Part shown: positions 24,088 through 45,091 of the stretch, piece after piece
Position numbering within the stretch: position 1 is the stretch's first letter
How the letters are laid out: every line of letters begins with the position of its first letter
Source: a virus
Length of the DNA stretch: 64,000 nucleotides
Reading direction: 5' to 3' (one strand)
IMG/VR virus record: IMGVR_UViG_3300037225_000932
Location: 96,001 to 160,000 of that record
The notes under the pieces: generated by a model
Databases searched by the model: none
What the model was told of the DNA's origin: nothing
Seen by the model: the letters and a program-made list of their open reading frames with translations, nothing else
Program-made: the position numbers and the translations under genes

Positions 24088-24255
24088 TTAATCCTCATTC
24101 GTCACAATTTGTTCCTTCTTAACGATACGAAGGCTAGTGCCGTCCGACTTCTCGACAGCCACTTCCTTGCCCTTCGGGTCTCGCCAACCGCAAACCCGCA
24201 TCGGAGCCGACAACGTTCCGTTACCCTCATTCACTCGAACCAAAGTCTCAGCCAT
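24088..24255 (-). CDS. 55-aa hypothetical protein (not in the ORF track)
   Basis: MAETLVRVNEGNG...; AAGGA RBS, promoter and terminator. Confidence 0.6.
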   Translation of the reverse strand: MAETLVRVNEGNGTLSAPMRVCGWRDPKGKEVAVEKSDGTSLRIVKKEQIVTNED

Positions 24256-24319
24256 TTTCGTATCCTTTCCTTGTTGGTGTTGCTGTTTTAGAACTTTTTA
24301 GTTTTCTTCAGGGAAAAGT

Positions 24320-24536
24320 AAATAGGTGTGCTATTACGCCAAAGGGAGGGGTTAAACCAGCAATTTCACCCTACGGGTCTTGCCCGCCTTGTCATCTTCC
24401 AAGCACCCTTTGCGAATTGTCGGCAACTACTGGTGAGTTTATGCCCATATTCGCATTGCTACAAAGGCTTGGAGACTACCCACTCATTAAAGATGGCTGC
24501 TTCTAAGCCTACTTCCTATTTTTCATTTTCCTTAAC
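24320..24536 (-). ncRNA. 23S rRNA GTPase-associated-centre (H43/H44, uL11-binding) mimic RNA with a ~140-nt insertion
   Basis: Minus strand reads AUAGGAAGUAGGCUUAGAAGCAGCCAUCUUUAAUGAGU...GCGUAAUAGCACACCUAU, matching 23S nt ~1051-1108. Closing helix AAAUAGG/CCUAUUU; own promoter. Confidence 0.8.
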
Positions 24537-24552
24537 ATTCTTTTAGAACTTC

Positions 24553-25735
24553 TTAGTTTTCTTCAGGGGGATAACAAGATGTATTTGCGTTTTCCTTCCA
24601 TTCTTGCGCATTATTGGCAATAATGATGGGGACTTGCCTAGACGCCCAAATATGTCCATCAACTCCAATTCCAAACCACCGACGACCAATCCCAAAACCT
24701 TGATACTTAGTATAAATACCAATTTTGCTTTTTTCGTTCAAACAGACGCAACCAACCGGAATCTTATTTTCTTCATCACAATTAAAGGCTGACATTTTTA
24801 GTTTTCCTTTGTTGCTGTTTTAGAACTTTTTAGTTTTCTTCAGGGGGAAAGATTTACTTATCAAAGTCAAAATAACTTGACTATCACTTTATCCCCAACC
24901 TTGAGATCTTTCCACCCGTTTTCTGACATGCTAAGATAAAGATAATATTCCTCAATTTCATCGTCAAGCTGGAGACAAACCGAATCAGGATCACCAAGTC
25001 CATCTCCGTGAATACCAACTTTAATTACCCTTGCGGTCATTTCTTTTACTGCGGGAGCCTGAAATGGATGATAACGTTTCATTGTTTTATCCTTTATTAC
25101 TTTAGAACTTTATCTCTTTTTTCAGGGAAATATTTTTTATAATAAAAACACTCTCTTTAACCCTACGACTCTCAAATATGGAGAGGAGGATCAAAGAGAA
25201 GTTTATCTAATAAGGGAGTCTGTTATACTTGTCGCTCATTATATCAGACTCAGCCCTTTATTTTTGTTATGACCTATTTTTTACAAATTCGGTGAGATAT
25301 TATTTTTAATCCAAGCATTCATCCCCTCAAGAACGGTATCCCGATTACCCGTAAACCCAAATTCTCGCTTAGCAATCGAATAAACTGACTCACCCTTGCG
25401 CCGCAAACCCCGTATTTCAAGCTTCAGTGCGGCCCGGAGAATAAGAATACGTGCATTCTTAACCTGTCGTTCGCCGCTGATTACGATCGCTTTACTTTCC
25501 ATTTTCTTTCCCTTTCAAGGATTATTGATTTAGAACTTTATAAAAAATTTCAGGGATTTTTATCTTCCCACTCAAATTTGTCCTTACCTTCATAAAGAAA
25601 ATCACCAATGTCACAAACAGATTGAATTTGTTCTTTCAATTGGTGAAATTCATTACGTAGTTTATACGTTCCTTCGCTTCCCCAGCAATAGTTATACAAC
25701 ATTTCAACAATTCGACGTGCAGCTTGTTTTTCCAT
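24553..25735 (-). other. Four single-gene cassettes (24553-24795, 24867-25082, 25281-25502, 25550-25735), small hypothetical proteins
   Basis: Each has a motif promoter and AAGG/AGGA RBS. Confidence 0.6.
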
Positions 25736-38396: not shown

Positions 38397-38657
38397 TCTA
38401 TAAACAGAGACACCCTTAAATATTTCATCTTCCTACCAGAAGATTACTTATTAAGGGTGTGGTAGTAGAAAATCCTTTTTCGAGCATCATGGGGGACTCG
38501 AACCTACCCATTACCCGGTTTAAACCCGGGTCTCCGACCATTAGAGGAACGATACCAAAAAGATTTTCTATCTCTGTGCCTAAGATTACTTTGTTGTCCC
38601 ATCATATTTTCGGGATCATAAACATTTCATCATCGGCTATTCTAATACTAGTTTAAC
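38397..38657 (-). ncRNA. Three-way-junction RNA family A member 2, containing a tRNA-like domain (38483-38556; anticodon position UUA)
   Basis: P1 ACAGAGA/UCUCUGU, P2 UAGAAAAUC/GAUUUUCUA, P3 CACCCUUAA/UUAAGGGUG, linker-loop CUACCA/UGGUAG; cloverleaf with a bulged T-stem. Confidence 0.7.
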
Positions 38658-44320: not shown

Positions 44321-45091
44321 TTATTTCCATATCATATCAAATACTTTTACTAATAAATCAGTTGCTTCTTTATCATCAACTCTATCCGGCAAAACAGAAG
44401 TGTCTAAAACTTCTTTAAGTCTTTCTAATCCTTTACCAATATCATCTACGCACTTTTGTGTATCATTCTTATCATAAGTAATACCATTTCTAATATTCAA
44501 AAGATTTTGAATATCTGGCCGTGGAAAAGTAATTTTGCCAGTTTTTAACAATTCTAAACCTTGAGCCGCAATTCTAAAGGCGTGCATTGCGAACTTCGTA
44601 TCAAAACCCTTTTCTTCAGTAATGTATCGTCGTCCAGTTTTATTACTCTGTTTAATTAAAAGTTTATTCATTTGAGAATGTGAAAATCCGTCAAAAGAAA
44701 AATAAACTTTACGACTTAAAAGTTTTAATCCTCTTTCTCTTAACAAATTCCACAAAACATTTTGAAAAACAATACAATTATCTGGAACAAAAAGAGTTTC
44801 AATGACATTAGGATTACAGCCATAAATGAGTTTAACCCATTTTCTAACATCATAGAAATTGACTTCTGAATTAAATTGTTCAAATCGTTTTTGCCAACAA
44901 TCAGGAATCTCACCAGTTATCCATTTGGAGCGTGGTGAATAATAAATTAAAACATAATCATGATCACTTGTCGGAAGTGAAGTTCCATACATTTGAGAAC
45001 CAGAAGTATGAAAAAGAAGAATATTATTTAATATCCATTCTTGTCCATCAGAAATTAGTCTATCAGTTAGACTTTTAATAGTTAGAGGCAT
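44321..45091 (-). CDS. Pol-beta superfamily nucleotidyltransferase (RlaP/YcgL-like)
   Basis: SGSQMYGT..PTSDHDY, CNPNVIETLF, KFAMHAFR and LLNIRNG motifs. Confidence 0.8.
   Translation of the reverse strand: MPLTIKSLTDRLISDGQEWILNNILLFHTSGSQMYGTSLPTSDHDYVLIYYSPRSKWITGEIPDCWQKRFEQFNSEVNFYDVRKWVKLIYGCNPNVIETLFVPDNCIVFQNVLWNLLRERGLKLLSRKVYFSFDGFSHSQMNKLLIKQSNKTGRRYITEEKGFDTKFAMHAFRIAAQGLELLKTGKITFPRPDIQNLLNIRNGITYDKNDTQKCVDDIGKGLERLKEVLDTSVLPDRVDDKEATDLLVKVFDMIWK

Follow-up and report, generated by a model that had tools for sequence, protein, structure and literature searches.

The C-terminal domain of ribosomal protein L11 (uL11) binds a conserved 58-nucleotide (nt) domain of ribosomal RNA (rRNA), whose terminal base pairs are replaceable and whose fold is stabilised by the U1061A change (PMC1802607). 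The L11 interface of this domain consists of positions 1058-1060, 1062-1065, 1075-1083 and 1088 (PMC1802607). A stretch of 64,000 nt from the IMG/VR virus record IMGVR_UViG_3300037225_000932 (positions 96,001-160,000 of the record; this whole stretch is called the window) contains, at 24320-24521 on the minus strand, a copy of helix 43 (H43) and helix 44 (H44) of the GTPase-associated centre (GAC) of 23S rRNA, to which the 58-nt domain corresponds. The window RNA is a member of a large phage-specific family of non-coding RNAs, and is a selected stand-alone copy of the uL11/thiostrepton domain rather than a chance match. To our knowledge, no class of RNAs has been described whose members stand alone and replicate a functional centre of the ribosome, and rRNA mimicry is known only as a loose, cis-acting imitation in the mRNA leaders of ribosomal proteins. 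A published description of the family was not found in the open full-text literature, with subscription journals lying outside this coverage. We regard the GAC-mimic RNA as a new kind of phage RNA, with high confidence for its structure and distribution and with moderate to low confidence for its function.

The window RNA, when read on the minus strand from 24521 to 24320, consists of AAAUAGG, the H43 copy, the junction, the insert, UUUG, the H44 hairpin, ACA and CCUAUUU. Its parts are as follows (positions with four digits are those of 23S rRNA).

24320..24521, minus strand: structured RNA of 202 nt, member of the GAC-mimic family, located by cmsearch with covariance model R1 over the full model length
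24522..24536, minus strand: predicted short 5' leader, with the start placed about 6-7 nt past TTCTAA according to the box-to-ATG spacing at other copies of the promoter-like motif
24515..24521, minus strand: 5' strand of the closing helix, AAAUAGG, which replaces the top of helix 42 (H42) and pairs with 24320-24326
24491..24513, minus strand: copy of H43 covering 1057-1081, in which A1067 is part of the GGCUUAGAAGCAGCC hairpin; one pair (1058:1080) is missing from the lower stem
24482..24490, minus strand: junction UUAAUGAGU (1082-1090), including A1088, the tertiary partner of U1060; U.U at 1082:1086
24344..24481, minus strand: lineage-specific insert of 138 nt between 1090 and 1091, closed by GGG/CCC; the closing stem covaries in the family
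24340..24343, minus strand: UUUG linker leading from the insert back to H44, a hallmark of the family (U in 99/101, U in 96/97, U in 90/93 and G in 84/92 copies)
24327..24339, minus strand: H44 copy, consisting of the GC-GUAAUA-GC hairpin (1091-1100, with A1095) and A1101, C1102 and A1103
24320..24326, minus strand: 3' strand of the closing helix, CCUAUUU, followed by a U-rich tail

The H43 copy reads AAGUA GGCUUAGAAGCAGCC AUCUU, and the GGG...CCC insert is followed by UUUG and then by GCGUAAUAGC. Genuine 23S rRNA contained in the record of Paenibacillus phage Pd_22F (L005; L numbers are our handles for the sequences compared) was used as the reference for identity counts. The 5' segment GGAAGUAGGCUUAGAAGCAGCCAUCUUUAAUGAGUG is identical to this rRNA at 33 of 37 positions, and the 3' segment GCGUAAUAGCACAC at 13 of 14. 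The nucleotides U1060, A1088, G1071 and C1072 and the pairs G1091-C1100 and C1092-G1099, which we take from the 1999 crystal structures of the GAC to be those of the tertiary fold, are all present in the window copy. A first-pass annotation, made by a model from the letters alone, had reported this rRNA-like sequence, the U1061A change and a closing helix that is re-sequenced but still pairs. All of them are found on the minus strand: position 1061 is A, and AAAUAGG at 24515-24521 pairs with CCUAUUU at 24320-24326. The same annotation described the loops of H43 and H44 as intact. The lower stem of H43, however, is one pair shorter, having lost the 1058:1080 pair of rRNA and of most family members. 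An open reading frame (ORF) on the opposite strand (24328-24546) overlaps the window RNA and has no family match.

Membership in the family was assessed with the covariance model R1, which was built from 20 short members from 20 viral contigs, with the window excluded. R1 matches the window RNA over its full length (24320-24521, minus strand) with a score of 83.3 bits (E 6.9e-25), and gives 116 matches in 100 sources when the collected sequences are searched. Viral contigs contain more than 130 copies of the family RNA in all. At least 120 loci are obtained when viral contigs are scanned with the 3' motif, and the H43 motif is located 87-392 nt upstream in 102 of the 126 matches listed. The scan of viral contigs with the 5' motif, which excludes true rRNA, gives 71 loci. 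YUUURGCGUANNAGCACAY is located 21-300 nt downstream in 73 of its 75 matches, and the two matches that lack the 3' motif run off the ends of their contigs. This result indicates that the UUUR linker and the H44 copy are conserved regardless of the end that is used to collect the loci. When 596 Gb of prokaryotic genomes are scanned with the 3' motif, 93 places are found, about 20 of which are true members, mostly on contigs of metagenome-assembled genomes with a phage-like size. The window RNA, which the first-pass annotation had treated as a singular cassette, is therefore one of well over a hundred phage RNAs, which are normally located in arrays of transfer RNA (tRNA) genes.

The same two-part architecture is detected by blastn in phage records, where it occupies unannotated gaps of Pseudomonas phages pf16 and UNO-G1W1, Aeromonas phage 4_4572, Cronobacter phage GAP32 and Pectobacterium phage CBB. 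A second blastn query adds Milchi, Astolliot, XacN1, RSP15, ME3, a Vibrio phage and the Rak2-like group of Erwinia and Serratia phages. In UNO-G1W1 (L006:1573-1680, CDS0126, opposite strand) and in Milchi, a coding sequence annotated as 'hypothetical protein' overlaps the family RNA, and both are probably spurious calls. The length of the insert varies from 21 to about 390 nt, and this variation indicates that the family RNA is not coding. The smallest member (L144:655-744) is 90 nt long and has a plain hairpin as its insert. A large class of inserts is defined by NNNNCGAAGYAC at the insert start, which accompanies the module ...AGUR...GCACCCCG-(GNRA-like)-YGGUAAGGC... (L001 at about 1620-1660, L006, L002, L083, L015, L016, L028, L038, L051 and L060). 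Two or more copies of the RNA with different inserts are arranged in tandem at L079:3848-4334 and also in L116 and L077. L010, L080, L125, L062 and L099 have a second insertion, an extra hairpin of H43 directly after A1077 (alignment A1, columns 38-61).

The fold of the family was analysed for covariation with the 116-row family alignment, with shuffled alignments and slid pairings as controls. Standard pairs occupy 93.9% of the cells, as compared to 74.0% in the shuffles, and two-sided changes are observed in 16 of the 20 pairs. The covariation score is 0.46, as compared to 0.13 for the shuffles, none of which (0/500) reaches 0.46, and to 0.05-0.12 for the slid controls. Covariation is seen at all seven pairs of the closing helix, at the H43 pair 1058:1080 (GC 43, UA 33, AU 22) and at two pairs of the insert stem. 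The lone pair 1082:1086 also covaries (UA 53, CG 27 and AU 12 of 109), though it is outside the model structure, and position 1056 tracks it, being G with U:A and A with C:G. Conservation is nearly complete at U1060 (104/104), A1088 (111/114), G1071 (102/102) and C1072 (101/102), as well as at G1091, C1092, G1099 and C1100 (91-92 of 92-93 each). In the H44 loop, G1093 (92/92), U1094 (91/91), A1095 (87/91) and A1098 (92/92) are kept, and positions 1061 and 1097 vary freely, as they do among real rRNAs. These results indicate that the fold of the family is under selection. The earlier proposal of a selected rRNA-mimic RNA is borne out by the score of the window RNA, by the loops and tertiary-contact nucleotides kept in its homologues and by the covarying helices.

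Rfam 15 contains no such family, and none of its families matches the window RNA at the gathering thresholds. When the whole window is scanned in E-value mode, the window RNA is the only stretch that resembles large-subunit rRNA (model positions 1097-1144 of RF02541), and the score of this sub-threshold match is 16.5-21.5 bits, as compared to the gathering score of 50. Rfam detects no neighbouring rRNA helices in the 64 kb, in agreement with the first-pass annotation that no other rRNA sequence flanks the RNA.

The family RNA is strongly associated with tRNA genes. Within 3 kb of 135 family copies, 598 tRNA genes are located, all of which are co-oriented with the RNA and none of which is on the opposite strand. 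For 49 copies a tRNA gene is located within 15 nt, implying that the RNA is co-transcribed with the tRNAs and released by tRNA processing. In L040 (8512-9131), the RNA is located about 200 nt upstream of a phage transfer-messenger RNA (tmRNA) gene, within an array of 12 tRNA genes. No conserved protein neighbour was found when 4000 ORFs were clustered all against all, the best cluster covering 12 of about 165 loci, and neither uL11 nor RelA/SpoT genes were found in the five carrier genomes examined. This result suggests that any ligand of the RNA is probably a host molecule. Suppressor tRNAs are encoded by several carrier phages, including the window phage, which has a tRNA with the anticodon UUA (ochre suppressor type; 38482-38555, minus strand) behind its own promoter box. 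When TAA is read as sense, the ORFs of the window are only extended into spacers, which gives no indication of stop-codon recoding.

The window RNA is located in an early-gene region, unlike most family members, and is flanked by two copies of a repeated promoter-like box.

24541..24567, minus strand: promoter-like box upstream of the RNA, CCTGAAGAAAACTAAGAAGTTCTAAAA, with the core AAGTTCTAA at 24543-24551; copies of the 27-mer are at 24286, 24541 and 24818
24286..24312, minus strand: next promoter-like box, which bounds the cassette and would drive the downstream ORF of 55 amino acids (24088-24255)

The underlying bipartite motif is tttNCCCTGAaAaa and aAtAAAGTTCTAAA separated by about 10 nt. 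In the window it occurs 57 times on the minus strand and not at all on the plus strand, as does its core AAGTTCTAA, upstream of which CCCTGA is conserved. The copies span 16895-60743 and are densest at 16.9-29 kb, before very small ORFs. The end of one box is 21 nt upstream of the closing helix, and the next one begins 8 nt past the RNA, indicating that the RNA has its own gene slot. The repeated box that the first-pass annotation called the RNA's own promoter is thus present at 24541-24567, and we infer that it functions as a promoter. The motif matches neither the sigma-70 nor the Bacteroidota consensus, and it may therefore serve a phage-specific polymerase or sigma factor.

Other features of this region concern the boxes and the phage itself. 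The boxes before the 80-amino-acid and 55-amino-acid ORFs share about 36 identical bases that extend into the 5' untranslated region (...AAGTTCTAAAACAGCAACA; 24277-24312 and 24818-24853, minus strand). Direct repeats therefore flank an ORF and the RNA as a pair, possibly as a relic of the insertion or duplication of a cassette. Stretches that lack an ORF and a start codon are located downstream of boxes at about 41597, 41113, 35117, 26014, 21222, 18067 and 17931 (minus strand). They look like further promoter-driven non-coding RNAs, and none of them is rRNA-like in the Rfam E-value scan. The source record (173 kb, estimated to be 88% complete) contains one copy of the RNA. The 10-kb surroundings of the RNA give no match to phage records by megablast, and PHROGs names almost none of the proteins of this phage, which belongs to an orphan lineage. 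Among the very few window proteins with a family match is a nucleotidyltransferase (44321-45091, minus strand; phrog_388, E 4e-51), whose gene adjoins that of tRNA-Glu and which is possibly a CCA-adding or RNA-repair enzyme.

The insert of the window copy has no detectable homologue, either by blastn within the family, by an exact-junction scan of viral contigs, by a scan of metagenome contigs or by a search with the neighbouring 80-amino-acid ORF. These searches return members of the small subgroup to which the window copy belongs, in which 1 bp of H43 is deleted, but only with other inserts. The predicted minimum free energy (MFE) fold of the insert has two arms. The helices UCCAAGC/GCUUGGA and GCGAAU/AUUCGC, which the first-pass annotation had proposed, are present in this predicted fold, and no homologous insert is available for covariation. 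The 9-bp loop-loop contact of the same annotation did not hold up. The pairing ACCAGUAGU(U)/(A)AUUGCUGGU is 10 bp long and is the longest complementarity of the insert, but 62 of 300 shuffled inserts (21%) match or exceed it.

These results are best explained as follows. The two ends of the RNA, 5' and 3', form an autonomous copy of the 58-nt GAC, with H43, H44 and the tertiary contacts, which is closed by an arbitrary helix where H42 would continue. The variable domain, 138 nt long in the window copy, extends from H44 between 1090 and 1091 and leads back through the UUUG linker. The RNA would be transcribed from its own copy of the repeated early promoter-like motif and would imitate the GAC in trans, off the ribosome. 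Host uL11, the C-terminal domain of which recognises the GAC fold, would be the ligand most likely to bind it directly, and the free RNA or its complex with uL11 would intercept something that otherwise acts at the ribosomal GAC. The insert site between 1090 and 1091 is outside the published list of L11-interface positions. The kink-turn of H42 and the uL10 site are absent from the family RNA. On sequence grounds, uL11 would thus be the one ribosomal protein whose complete site the family RNA retains. We consider it reasonably probable that the window RNA is a non-coding RNA of this phage family that copies the GAC, is served by its own promoter-like box, acts in trans as an off-ribosome imitation and is likely to bind uL11.

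Several observations weigh against this explanation. The window copy lacks the 1058:1080 pair, within the stretch contacted by L11, and has U.U at 1082:1086, where a Watson-Crick pair covaries in the family. Both changes define a small subgroup (the window copy, L075, L169-L172 and L270-L273), and the L11 C-terminal domain interface of the window copy is otherwise intact. Because the two changes are in or adjoin this interface, binding of uL11 is less certain for the window copy than for the family, and its affinity for uL11 could be lower. A shifted register of the closing helix was considered in place of the deleted pair and was dropped, because the covariance-model alignment and the relatives in the subgroup point to the deletion of 1058:1080. 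When the window RNA is folded as a single sequence, the z score is -0.99 and the MFE structure mispredicts the core. A1067 is A in 88 of 104 copies (85%) and G in 12, and is therefore more loosely kept than in ribosomes. The exposed loop adenine A1095 is likewise less strictly kept than the nucleotides of the tertiary fold. The window copy is located outside a tRNA array, the nearest tRNA gene being 14 kb away on the same strand. A sponge that acts in trans would face competition from tens of thousands of ribosomes. Finally, every member has at least a hairpin between 1090 and 1091 together with the UUUG linker. Mimicry by itself gives no reason for this obligatory insert, which may therefore be the working part of the RNA.

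Below off-ribosome mimicry with uL11 as the likely ligand, we rank a decoy for GAC effectors, then a role of the insert with the GAC copy as its handle, and then interference with RelA, release factors or GTPases. In the first of these, the RNA would not be a sponge for uL11 but would lure away enzymes or toxins directed against the GAC, namely effectors of host defence or of competitors that modify or cut H43/H44, such that an abundant free copy soaks them up and the ribosomes are spared. The toxin Tre23 ADP-ribosylates H44 of 23S rRNA at 1095-1098 and thereby blocks the GTPase activity of EF-G (PMC8661411). The loop at 1093-1098, which includes this target, is almost invariant in the family, and the location in tRNA arrays, once beside a tmRNA gene (L040), fits a toolkit that keeps translation running. 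ORF clustering yields no dedicated phage protein partner, and phage tRNAs, which replace host tRNAs or shield them from anticodon nucleases, offer an analogy. However, we know of no anti-phage system that targets the GAC, Tre23 being an interbacterial toxin of a type VI secretion system (T6SS). A decoy also presupposes enzymes that recognise the domain on its own, outside the ribosome and free of uL11, and it leaves the obligatory insert unexplained as well. We regard this possibility as plausible but unlikely.

In the second possibility, the GAC copy would be only a handle, which recruits uL11 or docks near the stalk and so gives stability or localisation to the variable insert, a lineage-specific RNA domain that would carry the actual function as another activity. 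The insert is obligatory and always at the same site (21 nt to about 390 nt), sub-families share elaborate modules, such as GCACCCCG-NNNN-YGGUAAGGC in pf16, UNO-G1W1, 4_4572 and L083, and the two copies present in some phages differ in their inserts (L079). However, the inserts are not conserved throughout the family, the minimal member L144 has only a plain hairpin, the window insert has no detectable relative, and the GAC core is what selection keeps constant. A handle for a functional insert is therefore improbable in our view.

The third possibility is that the RNA binds uL11 or factors that work at the L11 stalk (RelA with A-site tRNA, RF1 and EF-G), and thereby lowers the synthesis of (p)ppGpp or alters termination during infection. 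uL11 and the GAC are necessary for the activation of RelA and participate in the RF1 and EF-G steps (general knowledge; partly PMC1802607). The loops that contact the factors are conserved in the family, and suppressor tRNAs accompany the RNA in several carrier phages, including the window phage. Against this, uL11 is already bound to ribosomes, so that the stoichiometry is unfavourable, and factor binding requires the sarcin-ricin loop and the stalk proteins, which are absent from the RNA. A string that resembles the sarcin-ricin loop, AGUAGAGAGG, in the insert of pf16 was rejected, because its closing C is missing and it is not conserved within the sub-family. The window, when read with TAA as sense, shows no sign of recoding. 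Interference of this kind is quite improbable. The sequence alone cannot separate sequestration of uL11, damping of the stringent response and decoying of defences, the three roles named by the first-pass annotation, and each of them is put forward here conditionally.

A cis-regulatory role, in which the rRNA mimic controls the downstream ORF through uL11, like the leaders of ribosomal protein operons, has a precedent in rRNA mimicry by mRNA leaders as an established route of autoregulation. It is very improbable and was excluded, because a full promoter box intervenes between the RNA and the ORF that follows, because most family members are located between tRNA genes with no ORF downstream, because there is no ribosomal protein gene nearby (the neighbouring ORFs have no family matches and the genome has no uL11 gene), and because no Rfam leader family matches the window RNA.

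An artefact, either a fragment of host 23S rRNA that is misassembled into the contig or a decaying captured piece of rRNA without function, has a negligible probability, even though true rRNA fragments contaminate some 'phage' records, because only two short segments are rRNA-like and the rest of the 64 kb has no such resemblance, because a family-specific insert and linker lie between these segments, which are held together by a non-rRNA helix with covarying pairs, and because complete genomes of cultured phages show the same architecture. Contamination and chimerism, which the first-pass annotation had named as a possible refutation, were thus ruled out by the covariance-model score, the family members and the covarying fold. 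Phages of gamma-proteobacteria have GAGUG at 1087-1091, like the rest of the family, whereas E. coli 23S rRNA has GAAAG, and this difference argues for one old family over repeated capture from each host. Genuine contiguous 23S rRNA is present in L005 (82472-85513) and in short Staphylococcus, Listeria, Escherichia and Salmonella 'phage' records, where it is most likely host contamination.

What follows from off-ribosome mimicry of the GAC can be stated tentatively. Large phages may carry a replica of a ribosomal centre beside their tRNA and tmRNA genes, which captures uL11 or decoys GAC effectors (toxins, the activation of alarmone synthetase, or release or elongation factors), so that phage translation is kept running or is reprogrammed. 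We consider this broad reading somewhat less probable than not. Hundreds of large phages that are not related to one another carry the replica, among them cultured ones that are amenable to genetics. Should the replica bind uL11 or act as a decoy for GAC factors, it represents a new viral route to manipulate or protect host translation. It would then be the first trans-acting mimic of an rRNA domain, the GAC would be a battleground between phages and bacterial defences, and undiscovered bacterial defences against the GAC are predicted. The family also provides natural GAC variants that fold stably, including the 90-nt minimal form, for structural and antibiotic-binding work, and it allows gaps in phage tRNA arrays to be annotated where records currently show nothing or spurious ORFs.

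The closest known system is the GAC of bacterial 23S rRNA (E. coli 1051-1108), with which the family shares nearly identical H43 and H44 loops and the secondary structure, as well as U1060, A1088, G1071, C1072, the covarying lone pair 1082:1086 and the freely varying positions 1061 and 1097. Unlike this GAC, the phage RNA is encoded by a free-standing gene and is not a part of rRNA. It has a generic 7-bp helix in place of H42, without the uL10 site and kink-turn 42, an obligatory insert and UUUG linker between 1090 and 1091, and A at position 1101, which pairs with U1090. The window copy additionally lacks the 1058:1080 pair. Laboratory 58-60-mers of the GAC have arbitrary closing pairs like the phage RNA and A at 1061 like the window copy (PMC1802607). 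The leaders of ribosomal protein operons, such as those of L10 and L1, are likewise RNAs that imitate, off the ribosome, the rRNA site of a ribosomal protein. However, these leaders are cis-acting 5' untranslated regions of cellular operons with a loose resemblance to rRNA, whereas the phage RNA is nearly a base-for-base copy and stands alone or in tRNA arrays with no ribosomal protein gene nearby.

Among phage RNAs, rnaC and rnaD of T4 (species 1 and 2 RNAs) are similar to the family in that they are small stable RNAs without an assigned function, co-oriented within a phage tRNA cluster. They are not homologous to the family, because R1 finds nothing significant in T4 (best match E 0.07, inside segB) and no match in T5. 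The pseudo-ToxI of phage PhiTE is a phage-encoded mimic of a host RNA that serves to neutralise a function of the host (PMC3475682); in the family described here, the imitated molecule is an rRNA domain. Phage tRNAs that escape anticodon nucleases share the location in tRNA arrays with the GAC-mimic family. Tre23, a Photorhabdus Rhs/T6SS ADP-ribosyltransferase, is a toxin and not an RNA, but its target, 1095-1098, is in the loop that is conserved in the phage RNA, and its existence demonstrates that conflicts between bacteria involve attacks on the GAC (PMC8661411).

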